13,326 bases of DNA from Vulcanimicrobiota bacterium (lineage in GTDB: Bacteria > Vulcanimicrobiota > Vulcanimicrobiia > Vulcanimicrobiales > Vulcanimicrobiaceae). The notes beneath the pieces are model-generated. The model was not told the origin of the DNA, did no database searches, and was given only the letters and a program-made list of their open reading frames with translations. Each line of letters begins with the position of its first letter. Position 1 is the stretch's first letter. The stretch is from positions 1-13,326 of the forward strand of contig PLCF01000052.1 of assembly GCA_003135555.1 (NCBI GenBank). Reading direction: 5' to 3'. Shown piece after piece: positions 1 through 12,684 of the stretch. A program made the position numbers and the translations under genes.

Positions 1-70
1 GTCGCTCCCTGAACGGGTTCACCGGGCCGGCGCGAAACCGGCTCCCCCCGGGCCGGGTAGGTGGTGGAGG

Positions 71-2035
71 ATGACCGCCACCTGCGAGGTCTGCCGGGCA
101 AAGCCCGCTAGCGTCCGCGATCTAGCCCTGCGCGCCGGCCGCTGGGTTCAGGCCGAGGTCTGCGCCGACTGCGCGCGGCGGCGCCGGCGCGGCCCCCTAG
201 CGATCCTCGGCGTCGCCGCTGCCGCGGCCGCCCTCTTCGGTGGCGCGGCCGTTGCGATCGACGCGGCGAACCGGCGCAAGGACCCGTCCCGCGATGCGTC
301 GTCGCCGGCACCCCAGCCGCTGGGCGATCTGGGCCGGGTGTTCCGGCCCGGCGCGACCACGCTGGCGCAGTACTCGCGCGATCTGACCGAGGCCGCGAAA
401 CGCAACGAGCTCGACCCGGTGATCGGCCGCGACGACGAGGTCGAGCGCGTCGTCTCGATCCTGGCGCGGCGCAGCAAGAACAACCCGGTCCTCATCGGCG
501 AGCCCGGTGTCGGCAAGACTGCGATCGTCGAGGGACTCGCGCAGCGCATCGCGCGCGGGGACGTGCCGCAGGCGCTGCGCGACAAGCGCGTGTTGGCGCT
601 CTCGCTGGGTCCGTTGGTCGCGGGGACGAAGTATCGCGGCGAGTTCGAGTCGCGCGTCAAGAAGATTCTCGATGAGGTCAAACGCGCGGGCCGCGACATC
701 ATCCTGTTCATCGACGAGCTGCACACGCTCGTCGGCGCCGGCGCGGCGGAGGGGTCGCTCGATCTCAGCTCGATGATCAAGCCCGAGCTCGCGCGCGGCG
801 AACTGCAGTGCATCGGCGCGACGACGTTCGACGAGTACCGCAAATACGTCGAGTCCGATGCGGCCCTCGAGCGCCGCTTTCAACCCGTGCAGGTCGACGA
901 GCCGACCATCGAGCAGACCGTGGCGATCCTACGCGGCCTGCGCCCGAAGTACGCCGCCCATCACGGCGTGCAAATCGACGACGACGCGCTCGAGGCGGCG
1001 GCGACGCTGGCCGCGCGCTACATCGCCGACCGCTACCTTCCCGATAAGGCGATCGACGTGGTCGACGAAGCGTCGGCAGGCGCCGCGATGCGCGGCACCA
1101 AGCGGGTCGACGTCGACCTGGTCGCGGCGGTCGTCTCGCGTTGGACGGGGATCCCGCAAGGGACGATCACCGACGCGCAACGCGCCGGGCTGCTCGCGCT
1201 CGAAGCACAGCTCACCGCGCGCGTCGTCGGGCAAGACCATGCCGTCAGCGCGGTGGCGCAGGCGATTCGCCGCGCGCGCGCCGGCTTGAAGGACCCGCGC
1301 AAGCCGGTCGGCGGCTTCTTGTTCATCGGCCCCAGCGGCGTCGGCAAGACCGAGCTCGCGCGCGCGCTCGCGCAGGCGCTGTTCGGCACGGACGATGCGC
1401 TCGTCCGCCTGGACCTCTCGGAGTACACCGAGGCGCATACGATCTCGCGATTGCTGGGCGCACCGCCCGGCTATCAAGGTCACGACGAACCCGGTCAGCT
1501 CACCGAGCCGGTGCGCCGGCGGCCCTATTCGGTCGTGCTGTTCGACGAGATCGAGAAAGCGCACCCGGACGTAGCCGCGATCCTGTTGCAGATCCTCGAC
1601 GACGGGCGCGTTACCGACGCCAAAGGCCGCACGATCGACTTCCGGCACGCCATCCTGGTCTTGACGTCCAACCTCGACCGCGCGGAGCTCGAAGCGACGT
1701 TGCGCCCCGAACTCATCGACCGCATCGACGAGGTCGTCGTCTTCGACGAGCTGGGCTCGCACCAGATCGAGCAGATCGTCGCCCTGCAGGTCACGCTGCT
1801 GGCCGAACGGCTCGGCGCGCACGCGATGCGGCTCGACCTCTCCGATCCGGCGCGCCGCTTTTTGGCGCGCGAAAGCTCGGCGCAAGGCAGCGGTGCGCGC
1901 TACGTCGCGCGCGCGATCGCGCGCCACGTCACCACACCGCTGTCCGAAGCGATCCTGCGCGGTCGGCTCGTCGGTGGCCACACCGCTTGCGTCGACTACC
2001 GCGCCGGCGCGATCACCGTCGAGGCCGCGGCATGA
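71..2035 (+). CDS. Atypical class I Clp/Hsp100 AAA+ ATPase (ClpE/ClpC-related), 654 aa, with N-terminal CxxC-x22-CxxC Zn finger and a hydrophobic helix
   Basis: Two AAA modules: '[11 protein letters not shown]', '[18 protein letters not shown]' (Walker A1), KYRG pore loop, 'ILFIDELH' (Walker B1), 'DAALERRFQ', 'RYLPDKAID', 'GPSGVGKT' (Walker A2), '[14 protein letters not shown]' (Walker B2), 'GAR' sensor 2. GGTGGAGG immediately before ATG 71. Confidence 0.93.
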
Positions 2036-2619
2036 AACGGCTGCTGCTGACGCTGCTGCTTGCGGGCGCGACGAGCACCGCGGCGCTCGCGCAGTCGACC
2101 GTTCCGATCGGCACGCCGCCCGCACCCGGGACGCCGACGACGAACCTGATCCTCGACGCGATGTTGGCGACCGCGCGGGCCGCGTCGATCAATCCGACCG
2201 CCGCGAAGACCGCGTCGCTCAATGCCTCGGCGGCGCTGCAGCGCTACAACATGGGCGACTTCAACGGCGCGCGCTCCGCCGCGATCCAAGCGCTGATCGA
2301 CGCAAACCGCATACCGCCGACGTCGATCCCGGTCTTGCAGTCGACGATACCGCAGACCGGCGCGCTACGCTTTGCACCCTTCCCGATCGCCGGCGGGAGC
2401 GTGGCCGCGATCGACGCCGAGGCCTTCGTGGCACAAGCACGCGGCGCCGTCGCGGCGTGCCGGGCCCGCAACTCGCCCAACAGTGTGCCTGCCGCCCAGA
2501 AGCTCGCCGCAGCCGAGCACGATGCGCAGGCCGGACGCTATCAGAACGTGCGCATCGAAGCGCGCGACGCGGTGGACCTCTGCGCCGCCGCGCAGCAGCA
2601 GCTCAACCAGGGGCCTTGA
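2032..2619 (+). CDS. Secreted Ala-rich hypothetical protein, 195 aa
   Basis: C-terminal part of track ORF 1141..2619. ATG 2032 overlaps the Clp TGA (ATGA). Sec signal peptide [21 protein letters not shown], Pro-rich linker, helical segments, two Cys. Confidence 0.82.
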   Translation: MKRLLLTLLLAGATSTAALAQSTVPIGTPPAPGTPTTNLILDAMLATARAASINPTAAKTASLNASAALQRYNMGDFNGARSAAIQALIDANRIPPTSIPVLQSTIPQTGALRFAPFPIAGGSVAAIDAEAFVAQARGAVAACRARNSPNSVPAAQKLAAAEHDAQAGRYQNVRIEARDAVDLCAAAQQQLNQGP

Positions 2620-3442
2620 CCGGCGGCACGGCGGCCGGGTGCGTGACCGGCCGCGACGCGATCCCGTCGAGGACTGCGATGTTGTGCGCCACGTCTTGGC
2701 TCTCACGCGCCGCGATCCCGTTGACGATCGCCGCGAAGGGTTGCGGCGGATGCAGCAGCAGCGACCCGAAGGCGGCGATGGTGAGGTCGCGGATGCCGAT
2801 CGTCGGCGAGTCCAGGAAATGCGGCTCGGCCGCGAGGACGCGGGCGAAGTCCCAGGCCCGATCGCGAAATACGATGATGACCTCGTCGATCAGCTCGATC
2901 TCGGATTTGCGCAGCACGTCGTAGATGTCGGCCAGGATGGGTGAGATCTGGCCGATCTCATGCAGCACCGCCTTGACTTGATGCGCGAGCACGGTATTGA
3001 TTGTGTAGAAGTCTTCGCGCAGCGCCTCGAGCGGACCGGGCTTGGAGACCAGCCACGCGGTGACGCCGAGGTCGAGATGGATGTGCGCGTTCATCCCGGC
3101 GAGCATGTGCAGCAGGATGACGTGCGAAGGACGCTCGATCGCCTCGAACTTCACCCGCCAGCAGTGCGGCGGCGCGGGGCCCTGCGCGGGATAGAAATGG
3201 CCGTTGAGCGCGGCGAAGAAACGGTTCGCAAACGTCACGTCGAACCGCACCATCCGCGGCCCGTCCTGGAACAGGCCGTCGTCGACCCCTTTGCCGATCG
3301 CGCGCGTCACGCGCTTGTAGAGCGCCACGAAATATCCCAGCCGGCTCTGGTTCTCGCGCGACCACGCGATGACCACGTCGATGCGTTCGACGACTCCGGC
3401 GATGTCGGTGGCGGGGGTGAGCAGCGGGAACGGCGTCGCCAT
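2603..3442 (-). CDS. DUF5995-like family protein, 279 aa
   Basis: C-terminal part of track ORF 2603..3928, starting MATPFPLL at ATG 3442 with GGAG upstream. Motifs 'LGYFVALYKRVT', 'FDVTFANRF', 'LAGMNAHIHLDL', 'DFYTINTVL' recalled as DUF5995-like; not searched. Confidence 0.78.
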   Translation of the reverse strand: MATPFPLLTPATDIAGVVERIDVVIAWSRENQSRLGYFVALYKRVTRAIGKGVDDGLFQDGPRMVRFDVTFANRFFAALNGHFYPAQGPAPPHCWRVKFEAIERPSHVILLHMLAGMNAHIHLDLGVTAWLVSKPGPLEALREDFYTINTVLAHQVKAVLHEIGQISPILADIYDVLRKSEIELIDEVIIVFRDRAWDFARVLAAEPHFLDSPTIGIRDLTIAAFGSLLLHPPQPFAAIVNGIAARESQDVAHNIAVLDGIASRPVTHPAAVPPVKAPG

Positions 3443-3489: not shown

Positions 3490-3987
3490 TTAGCCCCGCA
3501 GCGCGTCCTTGATCGCGGCTTCGATCTCGCCCGGGTTCATCTCGCCGAGACGATAGGTCTTCACCACACCGTGACGGTCGATGAAGACGTGGACGGGCAT
3601 CGCGATCGCGCCGTACGTCTTGCCGACGCTGCCGTTGCTGTCGATAGCGACGAGGCCGTACGGGTTCGCGTATTTCTTCTGAAACGCCGCACCTTGGCCG
3701 GGCGCGTCGAGCTCGTTCACCCCGACCACGAGCAGGCCGCGTTTGGCGTACTGCGCGCGCAGCTTGCCGATCGAGGTCGCCTCGGCGTTGCACGGCCCGC
3801 ACCACGACGCGAAAAAGTTGACGTAGACCACCTTGCCCCGCAGCGCGTCGAGCGAGACCGTCTTCTTGCCGTCCGGCGAAGGCAGCGAAAACGCCGGGGC
3901 CGGCTTGCCGGCCTGGGGGACGGCCCATGCCGTAGCGGGCAGCATCGCGAGCGCCGCAACGGCGGCGAGGGTCGTCCGGATACGCAC
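3490..3987 (-). CDS. TlpA/ResA-family thiol-disulfide oxidoreductase, exported, 165 aa
   Basis: GTG start, signal peptide ending ATAWA, 'GKPAPAFSL', 'GKVVYVNFFASWCGPC' active site, cis-Pro motif 'MPVHVFIDRHGVV'. Confidence 0.92.
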   Translation of the reverse strand: MRIRTTLAAVAALAMLPATAWAVPQAGKPAPAFSLPSPDGKKTVSLDALRGKVVYVNFFASWCGPCNAEATSIGKLRAQYAKRGLLVVGVNELDAPGQGAAFQKKYANPYGLVAIDSNGSVGKTYGAIAMPVHVFIDRHGVVKTYRLGEMNPGEIEAAIKDALRG

Positions 3988-4029: not shown

Positions 4030-4950
4030 TCAGACGATCGTCGGGAACTTCACCGTTGCGGCGTCGTCGCGCATCTGCGCGACGAGCTCGTCGGCGGAGT
4101 CGAACCGGCGTTGGGCGCGCACGAAGCGGAAGTCGCGCAGCGAGAGCTCCTCACCGTAGAGCGCCCCGTTGAAGTCGAGCAGCCAGGCCTCGATCGTGCG
4201 CGCCGCCCCGCCGAAGGTGGGGTTGCTGCCGATCGAGACCAACCCGAGGTAGTCGCGCCCATCGTGCCGCCCGGTAACCCGATATACGCCGTCGGGCGGC
4301 AAGAGCTTGGTGCCATCGACGGCGACGTTGGCCGTGGGGTAACCGAGGTCGTGACCGCGGCCTGCGCCAAACGCGACCGGGCCGCGCACGCTGTAGGACG
4401 CGCCCAGCAGCCGGTCGGCGCTTTCCAGATCGCCGGCTTGGATGGCGGCTCGGATTCGGGTCGACGAGACACGCTCGCCGCCATCGAGCGTGTTGGGAAC
4501 CGCCACCATCTCGCGTCCGTGCCGGCCCAGATGCGTGGCGGCGAAGGCGACGTCACCGGCACGTTTGTGACCGAAGCGGAAGTTCGCGCCGACGACCATC
4601 GCACGCGCGTTCAGCCGGCCGATGAGCATGTCATCGAGGAATTGGGCCGGAGTCAGGGACGCGATCGAGGCGTCGAAGGACAGCACGTAGGTCTCGTCGA
4701 TTCCGGCGCGAGCGAACGCGTTGACGCGCTCTTCGAGGGTCGCGATCATCGGCGGTTCCTGGCCCGGGCGCAAGAACGCCGTCGGGTGCTCCCGGAAGGT
4801 GAACACCGCAGTGCGCTCACCGGCGCGCCGTAACCGCAGCGCTTCGCGCACGATCGCGCGGTGCCCGAGGTGAAATCCGTCGAAGACCCCGATCGCGACG
4901 ACGAAGGCCCGCTCGGGCGGCCGCTCCGGCAGCACGTGGCTGATCTTCAC
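4030..4950 (-). CDS. ribF: Bifunctional riboflavin kinase / FAD synthetase
   Basis: 'AIGVFDGFHLGH', 'VVGANFRFG', 'VSSTRIR', 'GRGHDLGYPTAN', 'SIGSNPTF', 'IEAWLLDFNGALYG'. GTG start overlaps the truB stop (GTGA). Confidence 0.97.
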   Translation of the reverse strand: MKISHVLPERPPERAFVVAIGVFDGFHLGHRAIVREALRLRRAGERTAVFTFREHPTAFLRPGQEPPMIATLEERVNAFARAGIDETYVLSFDASIASLTPAQFLDDMLIGRLNARAMVVGANFRFGHKRAGDVAFAATHLGRHGREMVAVPNTLDGGERVSSTRIRAAIQAGDLESADRLLGASYSVRGPVAFGAGRGHDLGYPTANVAVDGTKLLPPDGVYRVTGRHDGRDYLGLVSIGSNPTFGGAARTIEAWLLDFNGALYGEELSLRDFRFVRAQRRFDSADELVAQMRDDAATVKFPTIV

Positions 4951-5813
4951 ACGAACACCTTGCGTGGCGCCAGGAGCGTTCCGACCGTCTCACCGACGCC
5001 GACGAGCACGCGCGCGGAGTCGCGCACGAACACATGCTTGTCCGGCGGCAATTGCGCCAGCGGCACCATGCGGCCGGCGCGGAAATCCGTCGCGCCGCGG
5101 CCGTCGAGCACGATGGTCGGGATCGGGATCACGCGTTCGGGTGATACGAGCGCACCGCCCGGATCACGCTCGATCTCGTCGAGCGTAAGGCTCTCCGAAA
5201 TCACGAACGGACCTGACGCCTCGCGCAGCAGCGCGCCCATGTGCCCGGCGGTGCCGCAGGCGCGAGCGAGGTCTTCGCACAGCGTGCGCACGAACGTCCC
5301 TTCGCTGCACGCGATCCGCAAGCGTACGACGTCGCCCTCGCGGCCGAGCACGCGCAACGCATACACGGTGATGGAGCGGGCCGCCCGTTCGACCGTCTTT
5401 CCCTCACGTGCCAACTCGTAGAGCCGCTTCCCGTCGCTATGAACCGCGCTGTACATCGGCGGAATCTGCGAAACCGGCCCGACGAACGCGGCGACCGCAT
5501 CGCGCAGCCTGGCATCGACGTCGGTCGGAACATCGCACCGGACGATCGTGTCGCCGGATGCATCGCCGGTCGAGGTTGCTCGACCGAGTACAAGCGTACA
5601 CACGTACGCCTTGCGCCGGTCGACGATCAGCGGCAGCAGCCGCGTCGCCTTGCCGAGCGCAACCGGCAGCACGCCGGCCGCTTGCGGATCGAGCGTCCCG
5701 AGATGGCCGATGGCGAGCTTGCCCGCCGGATCGCGGTACACACGCCGCAGACGCGCGCCGAACTGCGTCGACGTGAGGCCCGCCGGCTTGAACAGGTTCA
5801 CGAAGCCGAGCAT
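4947..5813 (-). CDS. truB: tRNA pseudouridine(55) synthase
   Basis: 'KPAGLTS', 'GHLGTLDPQAAGVL' (catalytic Asp), 'QIPPMYSAV', 'GKRLYELAREG', 'CSEGTFVRTL'; canonical position before ribF. Confidence 0.97.
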   Translation of the reverse strand: MLGFVNLFKPAGLTSTQFGARLRRVYRDPAGKLAIGHLGTLDPQAAGVLPVALGKATRLLPLIVDRRKAYVCTLVLGRATSTGDASGDTIVRCDVPTDVDARLRDAVAAFVGPVSQIPPMYSAVHSDGKRLYELAREGKTVERAARSITVYALRVLGREGDVVRLRIACSEGTFVRTLCEDLARACGTAGHMGALLREASGPFVISESLTLDEIERDPGGALVSPERVIPIPTIVLDGRGATDFRAGRMVPLAQLPPDKHVFVRDSARVLVGVGETVGTLLAPRKVFV

Positions 5814-5823
5814 GCGCCCGGGT

Positions 5824-6822
5824 CTACAAACCCTGCGCGCGCAGCGCGGCGTGCACGGCCTCGATGGCCGCTTGCAGATTTCCCTCGAAGGTCAACCCCG
5901 ACGCCATGAAGTGTCCGCCGCCGCCCAGGGTCGCTGCCGCGGCCTGGACGTTGATCTTGCCGCTGGAGCGCAAGCTGACGCGCACCGCACCCTCGTAGTC
6001 CTTGAACAGCGCCGCTGCCTCGACGCCTTCGACGGCACGCAGATGCTGCACGATCTCCTCGGTGTCCTCACCGTCGGCGTTCACCGCCAGCAGCATCTTC
6101 TCATCGACGTAGGTCCAGCAGTAGCGGCCCTCGTCTTCGATCACCGCGCGCTCGAGCGCCATACCCAGCAACTTGGTCGCGGCGAAGCGCTTGTTCGCGA
6201 AGATCTCTTCGGTGATGCGCGGCTTGTCGGCGCCCAGCTCGACCATCTCCGCGGACATGCGCAACACGGCGGCCGTAGTGTTGGTGTGCATGAACGCCCC
6301 GGTGTCGGTCATGATGGTAGTCAGGATGCAGGTCGCGATCTCGGGAGTGATCGGTACGTCGAGTGCATGCAGCAGCCGCAGTACACACGTCCCGGTCGAT
6401 GCCTCACTGGGGATCACGTAGTTGAGAGCGCCGAAGTGCGAGTTGCCAAGGTGGTGATCGACGTCGAGCATGTTCTCGCGCTCGAGCGCCGGGAGAAATT
6501 CTCCGGCGCGCGAGAAATCGCTCATGTCGCAGAACACCCACAGCGTATCCGCCGGCAGATCGGCCGGAACGTCGCGCGTAACCAAGTCCGTATCGGGCAA
6601 GAAGCGCAAGTTACGCGGGACCGGGTCCTGCTGGAAGTACCCGACGCGCTTGCCGAGCGATTTGAGCGCCAAACCCAGCGCGAGCCCGGCGCCCAGGGTG
6701 TCGCCGTCGGGCTTGACATGCGAGACGAACATGAACGAAGAGCGCCGCCGCAGCTCGGCTACGACCTCCTCGGTGGTCGACGACACCGGCGCCATGGCCC
6801 CGGCGGGAACGGAACTACTCAT
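5824..6822 (-). CDS. nrnA: DHH/DHHA1 phosphoesterase (NrnA-like nanoRNase / pAp phosphatase)
   Basis: 'SHVKPDGDTLG', 'DVDHHLGN', 'MTDTGAF', 'RVSLRS', 'GGGGHFMASG'. Start chosen at ATG 6822, overlapping the rbfA stop; ATG 6795 is an alternative. Confidence 0.9.
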   Translation of the reverse strand: MSSSVPAGAMAPVSSTTEEVVAELRRRSSFMFVSHVKPDGDTLGAGLALGLALKSLGKRVGYFQQDPVPRNLRFLPDTDLVTRDVPADLPADTLWVFCDMSDFSRAGEFLPALERENMLDVDHHLGNSHFGALNYVIPSEASTGTCVLRLLHALDVPITPEIATCILTTIMTDTGAFMHTNTTAAVLRMSAEMVELGADKPRITEEIFANKRFAATKLLGMALERAVIEDEGRYCWTYVDEKMLLAVNADGEDTEEIVQHLRAVEGVEAAALFKDYEGAVRVSLRSSGKINVQAAAATLGGGGHFMASGLTFEGNLQAAIEAVHAALRAQGL

Positions 6823-7165
6823 CGACGACCTTCGCCTTTTCCAGCGTCTTGTGCAGCGCGATCGCACGTTCGGTCGTGCGGTCCTCGACGAACGTCAGCT
6901 CCGGCGTGTACCGCAGGTCGATCGCATGCCCGAGCTCCCCGCGCAAGAAGCGCGATGCCGACTCCAGCGCATCCATCGACTGGCGCGCCACGTGCCGGTC
7001 GCCGATGATCGAGACGAACACCTTGCAGAACTTCATGTCCTGCGTGATCTCGCACCGCACCACGGTAACGAACCCCAACCGCGGATCCTTGAGATCCTCA
7101 GCGATGATCTTCGCCAGCGCCTTCTGAATCTCATGATCGATCCGCGCCTGTCTCTGCTGCTTCAT
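6815..7165 (-). CDS. rbfA: 30S ribosome-binding factor A, 116 aa
   Basis: C-terminal part of track ORF 6815..7582: 'MKQQRQARIDHEIQKALAKII..LKDPRLGFVTV..FLRGELGHAIDLRYTPELTFVED'. ATG 7165 overlaps the upstream TGA. Confidence 0.96.
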   Translation of the reverse strand: MKQQRQARIDHEIQKALAKIIAEDLKDPRLGFVTVVRCEITQDMKFCKVFVSIIGDRHVARQSMDALESASRFLRGELGHAIDLRYTPELTFVEDRTTERAIALHKTLEKAKVVDE

Positions 7166-7566
7166 ACGGTCACTCCGTTGCGCCGGCGCAGCCGTTCGGC
7201 CGTCTCGAAGCCGCCGCGGATCGCCAACAGGATCACGAAATACGTTACTGCGAAGGCTCCGCCGGACTTCGCGAACCAACCCACGACGAACGCTCCGCCG
7301 ATCATCACCGCCGCAACGATCCACGACCCCATACGGGCGTCTACCACAGAGGCCGGCGCGCCTTTCGACGGTTCCGGCCTCCACGTGAGCATGCGCGATT
7401 CCGCCCGCCGCTTGCGCGAATCCAACCACGCGAGGACCGCGAACGCCGGCACGTAGATCAGCAGATACGGCCGATCGAAGCGCTCGCCGGCATGCCAGAG
7501 GACGAGCGCGGCCGCCACCAGTAACGGGACGAGCCCGAAAGCGCTGCGGACAGCTGCCCGTATCAC
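7162..7566 (-). CDS. Hypothetical integral membrane protein, about 4 TM, 134-138 aa
   Basis: Four hydrophobic segments with basic clusters; stop overlaps the rbfA ATG (ATGA). GTG 7566 is preceded by GGGGGA; GTG 7578 is an alternative start. Confidence 0.7.
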   Translation of the reverse strand: MIRAAVRSAFGLVPLLVAAALVLWHAGERFDRPYLLIYVPAFAVLAWLDSRKRRAESRMLTWRPEPSKGAPASVVDARMGSWIVAAVMIGGAFVVGWFAKSGGAFAVTYFVILLAIRGGFETAERLRRRNGVTV

Positions 7567-7598
7567 GCCATCCCCCACGCACGAACCACTACGTCATC

Positions 7599-7760
7599 GT
7601 GACAGGTGTTCGGGGTACGTGCAGTGTCACGACGGGGCGTCACAGAAATCGGCGGAGCCAGGATGGCGAGAGCCGATTTTGTGCGAGTAGCGTTTTCCCA
7701 CGGAAGGGAAAACGCGGGCGTCCCCGGCGGGGCACTGCACGTGCCCCGGACGCCCGCCAC
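7599..7760. mobile_element. Putative MITE/REP-like structured element (162 bp) with terminal inverted repeats and 4-bp flanking direct repeat
   Basis: 7599-7628 (GTGACAGGTGTTCGGGGTACGTGCAGTGTC) matches the reverse complement of 7731-7760 at 24/30, all six differences transitions. CATC directly flanks both ends (7595-7598, 7761-7764). Internal hairpins at 7641-7683 and 7690-7715. No transposase. Confidence 0.65.
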
Positions 7761-7768
7761 CATCGGCA

Positions 7769-10615
7769 TTACGCTGGCTGAAGTTCCGGCGCCACCAATT
7801 CCGACGTGAAGGCTTCGATGACGTCGCCCTGCTTGAGGTCGGCGAACCGCGCGACTTGGATTCCGCATTCGAAGTTCTCTGCAACCTCCCTGACATCGTC
7901 CTTGAAGCGTCGCAGCGACTCGATCTCGCCGTCGAACACGACGACGGAATCGCGCAGCACGCGGACCTTCGAGTTGCGGGTGATCTTGCCGGACTGCACG
8001 TAGCACCCGGCGATCGAGCCGACCTTGGAGACCTTGAAGATCTCGCGAACCTCGGCGCGTCCGAGGATGATCTCGCGGAACTTGGGCGCCAGCATCCCGA
8101 CCATGGCCTTCTTAAGGTCGTTCTCGACATCGTAGATGACCTGGTAGAAGCGCAGATCGACCTGTTCGGACTCCGCCAGACGCTTGACCGACTCATCCGG
8201 CCGGATGTTGAAGCCGATCAGCACCGCGTTGGACGCCGAGGCAAGGTTGACGTCGTTCTCGGTGATCCCGCCGACGCCGGCGAGGATGACACCCACGTCG
8301 ACCTCGCTGTTCGAAAGCGACACGAGGCGAGCCCGCAGTGCCTCGACCGAGCCCTGTCCGTCGGCTTTGAGGATCAAGTTGAGGGTCTTCTGTCCGCCGT
8401 CGGCCGGCATGAGCATGAACGTCTCGAGCGAGACCTTGGCGCCGCCCGTCGTCGCGGCCATGCGCACGTCGCGGCGCTTGGTCGAACGTTTTGCGGCCGC
8501 TTCACGTGCCGATTTCTCGTCGGAGACGACCATCATCGTGTCGCCCGCCGACGGTACGTCGTTGAGGCCCATGATCTCGACGGGCACCGACGGCCCGGCC
8601 TTTTTCGTCTGCTTGCCCTTGTCGTCGAGCAGCGCGCGAACTTTTCCGAAGGTCGGTCCGACGACGACGACGTCGCCGACACGCAACGTCCCGTTCTGCA
8701 CGAGGACGGTTGCTACCGGACCACGCCCGCGGTCCAGCGCGGATTCGATGACGACGCCGCTGGCGCGACGGTGCGGGTTGGCCTTGAGCTCCCTGAGATC
8801 GGCTTCGAGCAGCACGGTCTCGAGCAACTTGTCGATGTTGTCGCCCTTGCGTGCCGACACCGGGATCATCTCGATCTTGCCGCCCCACTCGACCGGCTGC
8901 AGCCCCTCGTCGGTAAGCTGCTGCTTGACCCGGTCGGGCTGCGCGTCTTCCTTGTCCATCTTGTTGATGGCCACGACGATCGGGACGCCCGCCGCCTTGA
9001 TGTGCGAGATCGCTTCGCGGGTCTGCGGCATGACGCCGTCGTCGGCTGCGACGACGAGAATCGCCACGTCGGTGACCTTCGCGCCGCGCGCCCGCATCGC
9101 GGTGAACGCTTCGTGACCCGGTGTGTCGATGAACGTGATCGCGCGGCCGTCCTTGCCGAGGACGGTGTACGCGCCGATCTTCTGCGTGATCCCGCCGGCT
9201 TCGCCCGCGGCGACGCTAGCCGAGCGAATCTTGTCGAGCAGCGAGGTCTTGCCGTGGTCGACGTGGCCCAGGACGGTGACGACCGGCGGCCGCGCCTGCA
9301 GCATCTCCGGCTTGTCCTCTTCCTGCTCGACGACGACTTCTTCGCCGGCTTCCTTGACGATGGCGTTGAAGCCGAACTTGCGCGCCACCGCGATGGCTTG
9401 ATCGGACGAGATGTTCTGGTTGATCGTCGCCATCGTGCCCATGTGAATGAGCGCGCGCATGACCTCCGCGGCCGGGACGATCATCGACGTCGCCAGCTCC
9501 TGAACGGTCAGGACGTCGGGAATCTCGATCGACTCGAGCTTCTTGGTCGGGTCGTTCTCGCGTTCGTCATAGGCCGCTCCGCCTTTGCGCCGCCGCTGCT
9601 TCTCGAGCAGCATCTCCTTCTCGCGGTCCTTCTTGGCCTCGAGCTGCTCACGCGTTTGACGCCCGCGGCCGCCGGGTCGACCGCCCGGCGCACCGGACGA
9701 CGGCGAGGGGCCCTGGCTGGGTGAAAGCGGACCGCCGCCGGGGCGCGAGGGCCCACCGAAGGGACGTGGGGGCGTGCCCTGCGCCGTGCCGCCGGGGATG
9801 GGACGGAAGGGGCCGTTGCCGGCGGGGCGGCGCCCCTGCGGCGGCGCACCCGGGACGCCGGGAACGCCCGGCGGGCCGGCCTGCGCCGGGCGCGGCTGCT
9901 GGTATTGCCCGGGTCCGCCTTGGCCGGGTCGCGGAGCGACGCCGGGGCGGCCGGGGATCTGGCCGTTGCCGGCGGCGGGCCCGACCGGGCGGGCCGGCGG
10001 GCGCACCGAGTTCTGGCCGGCGGGAACCGGACGCAACGTCGGGACGGGCTCGTTGGGGAGCAGGGGGCGCAGCGGCGGCATCGGTCCGGGCGGACCGGTG
10101 CGCGGCGGGGCGTCGGGAGTCGGCGCAATGGCGGCTTCCGGAGCTTCGGGGTCCGCCGCTGCGGGCTGCGGCGGCGGCGCGGCGGTACGCGCCGCGGGCG
10201 ACGTGCTGCGGACCGGGCGAAGCTGCGGGATCGGCGCGGCCGGCGGCTCCGCCTGCGCGGCGGTACGCCGTGCGGGAGCTTTCGGCGGGGCGGTTTCGGG
10301 CGCCGCGGCGACTGCTGGAGCCTGCGTAACGGCGGCCTTGGCCGCACGCGCGGCCGGAGCCTTGGCGGCGACCGGCGCCTCCCCGGCTGGCGCAGCAGCG
10401 GCGGCCGGAGCCGCCGGAGCGGCTACGGGCGCGGTCTTAGGGGCGGCTTTGGCCCCTTTGAGCTGTGCGCGGAGGAGGTCGGCGACCTTCGGCTCGACGA
10501 CGCTGAGCTGGTTCTTTGCCTCGAGTCCCAGCCGCCCGAAGAGGGCGAGCAGGTCCTTCGACGACATGCCGAGCTCTTTCGCGAGCTCGAAAATCCTGGG
10601 TTTACCGGTTGCCAT
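7769..10615 (-). CDS. infB: Translation initiation factor IF-2, 948 aa
   Basis: N-terminal '[18 protein letters not shown]', long Pro/Ala/Gly linker, G1 'GHVDHGKT', '[12 protein letters not shown]', 'DTPGHEAF', 'NKMD', C-terminal '[15 protein letters not shown]'. AAGGA RBS before ATG 10615. Confidence 0.98.
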
Positions 10616-10631
10616 GCAATCCTTCAAAGTT

Positions 10632-10651
10632 ATGGCGCCCGAGGGCACCAT
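10632..10651 (-). promoter_or_regulatory. Hairpin in the infB 5' leader
   Basis: Minus-strand AUGGUGCC-CUCG-GGCGCCAU, an 8-bp stem with one G-U pair on the mRNA strand, just upstream of the infB RBS. Confidence 0.45.
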
Positions 10652-10715
10652 CCGCCGTTAAGTCATTCTGTATGAGCTCCGAGATCCGGAGTGTTCCGGC
10701 GCCGTCGCCGGGCAG

Positions 10716-10924
10716 TCACCATTGTAGCAGAGCTTCGACACTGAACCCCGGATAACGTTTGTTCTTTGCGACCCGTTGCGCGCAGCCGCGAGAGCAGAGG
10801 TAGGCCCCTCGGCCGATGTGCCGCTTGGCCCCATCGACGATCCAGCGGCCGTCCTGCCGCGTGAAGCGCCGCAGCGCCGGTTGCGGAAAGACGGTCCGGC
10901 AGCCGACGCAGGTCCGCTCGGGCG

Positions 10925-10928
<4 letters not shown>
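10716..10928 (-). CDS. ylxR: YlxR/RnpM (DUF448) RNA-binding protein, 70 aa
   Basis: C-terminal part of track ORF 10716..11159: 'MTPERTCVGCR...LRRF...GRGAYLC...C'. ATG 10928 overlaps the nusA stop (ATGA); canonical position between nusA and infB. Confidence 0.9.
10721..10729 (-). promoter_or_regulatory. Candidate extended -10 internal promoter for infB (TGcTACAAT)
   Basis: Minus strand reads CTGCTACAATGGTGA at the 3' end of ylxR, about 105 nt upstream of the infB start; no convincing -35. Confidence 0.4.
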
Positions 10929-12153
<1,225 letters not shown>

Positions 12154-12157
<4 letters not shown>

Positions 12158-12684
12158 CGGTTCTTCTCTCGTTGTTTCGCGCGCTGGAGGTCCGCGCGCA
12201 CATCGTACTCCAGGTTGGCCGATTTGATGACGGCGATCGGAATGGGCAGCTCGCCGTCCGGACGCGTCAGGATCACGTTGGTCCCGCGCACGCCTTCGAG
12301 TCGCCCGCGATGCGTCTTGGCTTTCTCGATGGCGAGCGTGGTGACGATCTTCGCATCGCGTCCGGCGAAGCGCTCGTAGTCGGACGGTTTGGTCAGCGGA
12401 CGGTCCAGCCCGGCGGAGACGACCTCGAGCGTGTACGGATCGGCGAAGGCGTCGAGCGCGGCGTTGATGCGCGCAGCGATGCGTTCGCACGTCGTGATGT
12501 CCACGCCGCCTTCACGATCGACCGTCACTTGCAGCGCGCTCTGCTGGCGGTGCCGGTGCGCGCTCGACGACACGACCTCGACGTCGCGGAACTCGGGTTG
12601 GTGCGGCAAAGCGTGCACGACCCGCTCGAAAGCCTCCGTTAGAAGGCTGTCGGGGCCATGCTCTCGCGCTTGGTCCGTCACCAT
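12154..12684 (-). CDS. rimP: Ribosome maturation factor RimP
   Basis: 'LQVTVDREGGVDITTCERIA', 'YTLEVVSAGLDRPLTKPSDYERFAG'; first gene before nusA; GGGGA upstream of ATG 12684. Confidence 0.95.

Follow-up and report, generated by a model that had tools for sequence, protein, structure and literature searches.

A candidate class-restricted Hsp100 subfamily with a zinc-finger-like N-terminus and a putative membrane helix in Vulcanimicrobiota

Background

To our knowledge, bacterial Hsp100/Clp proteins are soluble. The DNA analyzed here, a stretch of 13,326 nucleotides (the window) from a genome of the Vulcanimicrobiota, raises the question of whether one of them might carry its own membrane anchor. 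A sequence-only reading had noted that a gene in it encodes a Clp ATPase in which a four-cysteine finger, five arginines and 21 uncharged residues replace the usual N-domain, and had proposed a membrane-tethered Hsp100. We ask what kind of Hsp100 this is, whether the hydrophobic segment is a membrane element, and what such an enzyme might do.

Domain architecture

The gene (71..2035, on the forward strand, as are all features given below) encodes P0001, a 654-residue double-ring Hsp100/Clp ATPase with the layout finger, hydrophobic helix, linker, D1 and D2, which lacks both the M-domain and the ClpP-docking loop; these two absences, and the ECF-type promoter described below, go beyond what the sequence-only reading had noticed. 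The C4 finger (residues 5-34; 83..172), a beta-hairpin plus helix, is followed by a lineage-specific arginine run, R36-R40 (176..190), on its C-terminal helix, and by a Gly/Ala-rich hydrophobic helix (residues 43-63; 197..259), a putative membrane anchor marked by a stripe of small residues, G47/A51/A54/G58. A conserved D/E64 and R68 then lead into a variable, Pro-rich linker (260..355), within which the proteins of two taxonomic families, that of the source genome (f1) and f2, show a short amphipathic helix at residues ~83-94. All the motifs of the D1 AAA+ module (356..1096) are intact, namely Walker A (143-150), the pore motif KYRG, Walker B, sensor 1 and the Arg fingers, and the D2 AAA+ module with its small domain (1103..2032) retains Walker A, the pore tyrosine (Tyr468) and the Arg finger; together they provide the two AAA+ modules, Walker A and B motifs, pore tyrosine, Arg fingers and D2-small domain of a double-ring Hsp100.

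The M-domain deletion site lies between T343 and K344 (1097..1102), where P0001 falls 63 residues below the ClpC of its own genome, and the site of the missing IGF/LGF loop lies between L535 and D536 (1673..1678), where it falls 33 residues below. Among the rows of this family that were measured, the former interval comes to 29-35 residues, against 92-93 in ClpC, 149-162 in ClpB and 33 in ClpA, and 81-93 in ClpC/ClpK/ClpL-type rows. The M-domain is missing from all 20 family rows measured and the IGF loop from all 19. P0001 also scores below the model cut-offs for ClpB (819 bits against 1232), TssH (672 against 885), ClpG/ClpK (629 against 1900) and ClpA. Its D1 is 62% identical to that of the ClpC of its own genome, and its best fold matches are ClpC structures (S. 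aureus, B. subtilis).

We accepted the annotated start because no ATG, GTG or TTG codon occurs between residues 2 and 89 and because the finger stands at residue 5-7 in 111 of 113 database relatives; a mis-called or downstream start, which the sequence-only reading had raised against its own proposal, is thereby ruled out. The same reading had entertained the hydrophobic segment as a decoy, an idea that finds no support because each of the 95 family sequences has its D1 motifs intact. D2 is less uniform: its Walker B reads DD in six of the eight loci of a third taxonomic family, f3 (6 of 95 sequences overall), and its sensor-1 asparagine is missing in 5/5 f2 and 3/8 f3 loci, a decay of motifs that may signify a weak motor in these relatives.

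The finger

In the translation of P0001 the finger cysteines are C5, C8, C31 and C34 (CxxC-x22-CxxC), as the sequence-only reading had described, and all four are invariant across the 95 sequences of alignment A2. The kinship with the ClpE/McsA type, likewise put forward there, is borne out by matches of the family profile to McsA (8wtb; E 7.4e-5) and to ClpE (29hb; positions 4-117, E 1.5e-6, partly via D1). The profile match to ClpG N1 (8p66) is weak (E 0.15), and an hhalign comparison of the finger with ClpK N1 gives a probability of 80.7 (E 1.3e-5). The finger is modeled with a pLDDT of ~83; a fold search with the N-domain model returned weak matches only (best Z 5.2), and phage sequences contain no match to residues 1-95. 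We infer that the C4 finger of P0001 binds zinc. In ClpG N1, V17 and L21 bind aggregates (PMC10641755), whereas their counterparts in the family are D17 (89/95) and R21 (87/95). The conserved apolar finger residues lie elsewhere, at 18, 20 and 25. Because of these replacements, the finger, though homologous to ClpG N1, probably has a different binding target. The arginine run is real in P0001, but does not generalize: an RR pair follows the finger in 112 of 114 sequences from f1 or unplaced genomes, in 3/5 of f2 and in 0/8 of f3.

Distribution and ancestry

When 401 genomes of the phylum were searched with an N-region profile, the outcome was bimodal; the counts were made by eye, with the source genome excluded. 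On this basis the gene is present in 299 of 331 genomes of a single class of these soil bacteria, and in 0/69 from other classes, which give a weak match to the start of D1 alone. By family, at E <= 1e-20, it was found in 278/296 genomes of f1, 5/5 of f2 and 16/30 of f3; the same profile finds it absent from the f3 genera g4, g7, g9 and g83. The relatives come from sources named Vulcanimicrobiota or Eremiobacterota. Two NCBI MAG records under other names (P0083, P0091) are 70-72% identical in the N-region and may be mis-binned. Searching 1.84 billion representatives with a profile returned 28 matches at E <= 1e-10; among the 42 of 150 listed matches that were inspected, every one that covers the N-region belongs to the family or is a fragment of a member, and the next ones with a finger are of the ClpE-like or ZnF-ClpC kind and lack the helix. 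A scan of named genomes gave three loci, and Atlas matches, at most 0.82, serve as leads only.

Genomes with the gene also carry ordinary ClpC and ClpB; in the source genome ClpC is a separate gene, on contig C34. A quick IQ-TREE analysis of 49 AAA regions places the 20 rows of the family on one side of a branch with a weak SH-aLRT of 78, apart from the ClpC (SH-aLRT 99) and ClpB (100) of the class. The split between f1+f2 and f3 matches that seen in ClpC, with longer branches in the family.

Two frameshifted copies (L018, L019) and a truncated copy on contig C32 were left out of all alignments. Of the unpublished genomes, G036 (locus L016) was used in every alignment and count and in the tree; G342 and G264 (L022, L023) enter the charge, control, promoter-locus and covariation counts, L022 also the tree; all twelve flagged ones enter the 401-genome tally, G256 and G264 the 101-genome promoter match, and G251 is also among the data used. 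No claim depends on unpublished genomes alone.

Relationship to known Hsp100 and AAA+ systems

ClpA of E. coli, which has a Clp-repeat N-domain, likewise lacks an M-domain (33 residues at the site against 29 in P0001), but has an IGL loop and neither finger nor hydrophobic helix. ClpC differs in its Clp-repeat N-domain, M-domain and IGF loop, none of which occurs in the family, and beside an intact ClpC the family forms a separate, faster-evolving branch. ClpB differs in its long, DnaK-binding M-domain of 149-162 residues, as against 29 here. The membrane-anchored AAA+ proteins Msp1/ATAD1 and TorsinA are eukaryotic and possess a single AAA domain. We regard them as possible functional analogs only: they are N-terminally membrane-anchored, protease-free AAA+ rings (PMC7018516, PMC12793716, PMC5425593), and Torsin is without the pore loops that the family retains.

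The closest parallel in layout is ClpE of Enterococcus faecalis, in which a C4 finger (C3, C6, C29, C32) is likewise the sole N-domain, followed by a variable linker and D1-D2, and in which a hydrophobic stretch after the finger is functionally required (PMC13125188). Nevertheless, ClpE is a soluble protein that possesses an M-domain and works with ClpP, and its post-finger stretch comprises a few Leu/Phe residues as against 23 uncharged residues here. ClpG/ClpK share a homologous finger, and the ClpK row too is without the IGF motif; they are also described as stand-alone disaggregases (PMC10641755), but ClpG has C3H ligands, a far longer N-region and an M-domain, of which the family has none. 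ClpIb of Actinomycetota (PMC10149685) and ClpV/TssH present a further parallel, each being an extra double-ring Clp beside ClpB and ClpC that lacks a ClpP loop and is read as an independent unfoldase; both, however, retain the M-domain (of ClpC length in ClpI), and the words 'membrane' and 'transmembrane' are absent from the available text of the ClpI paper.

Judged by these sequence characters, the Hsp100 family is none of ClpA, ClpB, ClpC, ClpE, ClpG/K, ClpI or ClpV, and the best explanation is that it constitutes an undescribed, class-restricted Hsp100 subfamily. Among published accounts, mainly open-access texts with supplements aside, we found none of this family or of a membrane-anchored bacterial Hsp100.

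The hydrophobic helix

The 21 uncharged residues at 43-63 (L43-I63) are exactly as the sequence-only reading had stated, and the run extends to 23 residues (41-63). Here P0001 reaches its best 19-residue Kyte-Doolittle mean (KD19), 2.25, while no stretch elsewhere in it exceeds 1.14. Homologs retain the stretch, a point that reading had left to be checked: among the 127 family sequences, near-duplicates included, KD19 is at least 1.6 in 125 and at least 1.9 in 110, and 121 have a run of at least 21 residues free of D/E/K/R/N/Q/H. Both the higher KD19 and such a run occur together in 0 of 171 soluble controls (51,488 residues), which were kin from ~18 families of the same genomes, labeled by us, in part via homology. 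Charged and amide residues are practically absent at 44-63 on every face (weighted share <=0.01), the stripe of G47, A51, A54 and G58 is conserved, and the segment is closed by D/E64 and R68 (the latter in 92/95). Helix and finger are about equally conserved (0.62 versus 0.60).

The hydrophobicity is only marginal and does not reach that of integral-membrane controls: summed on a Hessa-type scale without position terms, it has a median of +0.28 in the family, against -2.1 for integral-membrane controls (n=39) and +7.9 for soluble ones (n=158). The Ala+Gly share of the helix is 0.63, against a comparison value of 0.21. Both AlphaFold models give one unbroken helix from residue 32 to ~70, continuous with the finger and without a hairpin, in which no neighboring domain buries the segment; the pLDDT there is <50 at 42-60 in the full model and 61-73 in the N-region model. 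The helix has no central proline, and covariation of this region is uninformative, the alignment being shallow (effective depth 62).

Charges around the helix bear on its orientation. In f1 the N-side net charge exceeds the C-side one in 32/32 loci (mean +3.6 versus +0.4). The sequence-only reading had seen in this a paradox, as the positive-inside rule would place finger and ATPase on opposite sides; its premise stands for f1, but the bias is small in f2 and f3, where the N-side is greater in seven, equal in four and smaller in two of 13 loci. Two to four Lys/Arg residues follow the helix within 10 residues in 17/17 loci. That reading's way out, a re-entrant helix, draws partial support. Re-entrant anchors are indicated by preceding positive charges plus Gly/Pro in the hydrophobic segment, and segments predicted as spanning can be re-entrant, as in PglC and LpxM (PMC6133551). 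Positive charges indeed precede, and Gly/Pro occur within, the N-terminal hydrophobic segment of the family, with the charges weak in f3; against this stands the unbroken helix of the models.

Because the stretch is conserved throughout the class and is membrane-embedded rather than soluble in character, membrane tethering is the leading reading, as predicted from sequence; to this extent the original proposal is supported.

Genomic neighborhood and a candidate ECF promoter

We found no conserved neighbor or partner gene among the loci compared. Upstream of the gene, f1 and f2 have SIMPL or ferredoxin genes, and f3 has LON-substrate-domain and Nudix genes; no T6SS genes were recognized among the neighbors listed. 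A downstream gene for a 195-residue protein (2032..2619) with a signal-peptide-like start overlaps the Hsp100 gene by ATGA; it adjoins it in loci of the same genus only, and its product has no match in Pfam and NCBIfam. A link to McsA-McsB was considered and rejected, a McsB-type kinase being present in only one of five genomes. An extra ClpP or FtsH partner was likewise rejected, since the 1-2 strong ClpP and 1-2 FtsH-type matches per genome show no pattern with presence of the gene (five genomes each).

Upstream of the gene lies a putative SigW-like ECF-sigma promoter (34..59), with GAAAC at 34-38, a 17-nt spacer and GGTA at 56-59. GGTA ends 11 nt before the ATG of P0001, which predicts a very short leader. 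For comparison, the SigW consensus is TGAAAC/CGTA, and SigW is autoregulated (PMC5758882); the -10 element here is mostly GGTA at 17 nt, as against CGTA at 16 nt. The family motif, GAAAC-N16/17-RGTA (GCAAC in two), mostly ends 10-13 nt before the start and precedes 28 of 49 ortholog loci (28/36 in f1, 0/13 in f2/f3), against 45 of 10,400 random windows. Followed by a C-E-x-C start, it occurs in 67 of 101 f1 genomes, as against seven for a reversed control pattern; these are pattern matches, some possibly belonging to genes other than the Hsp100 gene.

Of 67 sites in the source genome with a 16- or 17-nt spacer, 13 stand before a gene start, against seven of 256 with other spacers; two of the 13 are the Hsp100 gene itself and its copy. 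The 11 other genes, and two more with GCAAC, comprise two ECF sigma genes, hslV, folC, genes for a DUF4097 protein, exported-looking M16 and beta-lactamase-like proteins, a winged-helix regulator, two small membrane proteins and three unknowns. For the two ECF sigma factors, SigW and RpoE are among the best models, below cut-off. In relatives, where 13 of 18 ORFs were scanned and several pattern matches are without a gene, the motif precedes yccA/Bax1-I (G020, G027), an M48 peptidase gene and hslV (both in G171), and TPM, HlyD and DUF4097 genes. Enrichment of envelope functions is suggestive only, because five of the 13 other motif genes have products that look exported or membrane-bound, while a related measure puts the genome-wide background at ~25%.

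The SigW-like combination of AAC and GTA elements at a fixed distance, also found before a sigma gene, is confined to f1. From these patterns we infer that the motif is an ECF promoter of the Hsp100 gene. No CIRCE or CtsR box, by the patterns applied, occurs in the 200 nt upstream at 49 loci. One RNA run, of small share, has contigs over 91-360, which is no proof of expression.

Proposed mechanism and its alternatives

Hsp100 N-domains sit at the entry face of the ring. We propose, giving it an even chance, that P0001 is an ECF-induced ATPase with a monotopic or in-plane anchor, its finger and ATPase both cytoplasmic, that acts as a ClpP- and DnaK-independent unfoldase with its entry pore facing the membrane. 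Envelope stress would switch the gene on through an ECF sigma factor; the Gly/Ala helix, of marginal hydrophobicity, would insert into the cytoplasmic leaflet, in-plane or re-entrant, without crossing, so that finger and ATPase would both stay in the cytoplasm, and basic residues at both helix ends would rest on lipid head groups. Six subunits would form a ring whose D1 entry face, given the position of Hsp100 N-domains, would be turned to the membrane, where the finger would select a membrane or membrane-proximal client or partner. As there is neither M-domain nor ClpP loop, the ring would thread its client without DnaK activation and, rather than degrade it, set it free in the cytoplasm in an unfolded, extracted or disassembled state, to be refolded or passed to another protease. 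The D1 motifs, intact in 95/95, and the homology of the finger to cytoplasmic zinc domains argue for a cytoplasmic location of both. Against the monotopic anchor count the 23 uncharged residues, a full spanning length, and the N-in/C-out bias of 32/32 f1 loci; against the ECF step counts the absence of the motif directly before the gene in f2/f3 (0/13).

A more specific reading, which we hold only tentatively, is that of an extractase dedicated to membrane proteins: a double-ring Hsp100, lipid-anchored and protease-free, that an ECF sigma factor of the envelope-stress type would induce and that would extract proteins from the inner membrane without degrading them.

A soluble Hsp100 is the alternative that survives best, although we consider it unlikely. 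Here the helix would be buried against a partner or in a homo-oligomeric bundle, or would be an enlarged client-binding stretch of the ClpE type, a notion suggested by the requirement for the Leu/Phe stretch after the ClpE finger (F52, F54) in aggregate recognition (PMC13125188). The small-residue stripe suits helix packing, the helix matches the finger in conservation, and its hydrophobicity falls below that of the integral-membrane controls. Yet the helix offers no polar face for the exterior of a bundle, no soluble control (0/171) has such a segment, and ClpE-like relatives and fragments reach a KD19 of at most ~1.2 at the helix position.

A single span with N-out/C-in topology is less probable still. 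It would keep the ATPase cytoplasmic and make the finger a periplasmic domain that senses or binds clients, and the small-residue helices of six subunits might pack together above the pore. The spanning length, the unbroken helix and R68 (92/95) all fit it, as does the precedent of Msp1, with one N-terminal TM helix, then linker and AAA domain (PMC7018516). It would, however, require a 40-residue finger of net charge +2 to +6 (17/17 loci) to cross the membrane without a signal peptide, against a charge bias that is opposite in 32/32 f1 loci, and its finger homologs are cytoplasmic zinc domains.

Of the alternatives, an N-in/C-out signal anchor (Sec or Tat) exporting the AAA core to work, or serve as a scaffold, in the periplasm is the most doubtful: it accords with the positive-inside bias of the 32 f1 loci, an Ala/Gly core like that of lineage signal peptides (TlpA, 0.42-0.53 Ala+Gly in loci of the same genus), the presence of TatC in 5/5 genomes examined and the decaying D2 motifs of some lineages, but the ATP-related D1 motifs are invariant (95/95), the periplasm is not known to contain usable ATP, the twin-arginine motif expected of Tat substrates is not conserved across the family (the TatP motif, as defined in PMC6085387, occurs in 27/114 f1 or unplaced, 0/5 f2 and 0/8 f3 sequences), and the RR pairs begin at residues 36-39, beyond the first 35 that TATFIND uses.

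Conclusions

As far as is known, membrane-protein extraction in bacteria is tied to degradation by FtsH. If the proposal of a monotopic, cytoplasm-facing unfoldase is true, an Hsp100 with its own anchor, and without a protease dock or an M-domain, would show a textbook motor put to a new use. Were the extractase reading to hold, its targets would be damaged, stalled or mislocalised proteins, and it would be a bacterial analogue of the mitochondrial Msp1, independently built from a ClpC/ClpE scaffold. Through the conserved promoter, an ECF stress regulon of a poorly studied phylum would become approachable for the first time. Moreover, the family presents a natural minimal D1-D2 ring, and it is therefore possible to test with it what keeps such a ring in check when the M-domain is missing and whether, in bacteria, extraction is separable from proteolysis.

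Genomic neighborhood of the Clp gene

The Clp stop codon overlaps the start of a second gene (ATGA; window 2032-2619), whose 195-aa product begins like a signal peptide, has two cysteines close to its C-terminus and matched no family; this gene adjoins the Clp gene only in loci of the same genus. It is followed on the minus strand by genes for a DUF5995 protein (2603-3442) and for a TlpA-like redoxin whose N-terminus bears a signal or an anchor (3490-3987), the latter being a neighbor of the Clp gene in loci of both its own family and a second family of the class (f2). The minus-strand translations at 4030-12684 form a gene string of an ordinary type, which we take, from their sequences, to be rimP-nusA-(ylxR-like)-infB-rbfA-nrnA-truB-ribF. 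Its IF2 displays a long Pro/Ala/Gly-rich N-terminal insert (~9500-10500), with GC reaching 0.82.

The promoter motif at other genes

The same genome codes for two SigW/RpoE-like ECF sigma factors (L089, C58:183097-183750; L090, C97:115142-115705), and each gene has the motif GAAAC-N16-(G/C)GTA upstream; both are likely to be autoregulated. A DUF4097 gene divergent from one of them is also preceded by the promoter motif. In five of the eight loci of a third family, f3 (L011, L013, L014, L015 and L017), the motif falls ~995 nt 5' of the Clp gene, within the coding sequence of the upstream LON-substrate-domain gene, where its GTA is a Val codon. It may act as an internal promoter or merely reflect coding constraint; it was not found at the two loci parsed from genomes lacking the Clp gene.

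Loss and additional copies of the Clp gene

In f3 genomes without the Clp gene (L130 of G251, unpublished, and L131 of G209), the Nudix gene and the aldolase or YciI gene on its flanks are still near each other, and this retained proximity suggests a clean loss of the Clp gene at this site. In the genome under study, a truncated 5'-end copy together with its promoter occupies the end of a different contig (L020, C32:1-390) and is 87% identical in DNA to the window gene over 427 nt; the assembly has probably merged two strains, or else the genome may contain the gene twice. Frameshifted copies in two low-completeness genomes (L018:6850-10077; L019:6700-8700) probably reflect sequencing errors.

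The finger in other Clp proteins

One f2 genome carries a gene for an McsB-type kinase directly upstream of clpC (L059, G027:C20, near 70869-71405); none was found in four other genomes searched. The N-terminal C4 finger is also combined with a Clp-repeat N-domain in the Clp ATPases P0138, P0141, P0143, P0150, P0163 and P0172; fusions of this finger to Clp proteins thus come in several arrangements.
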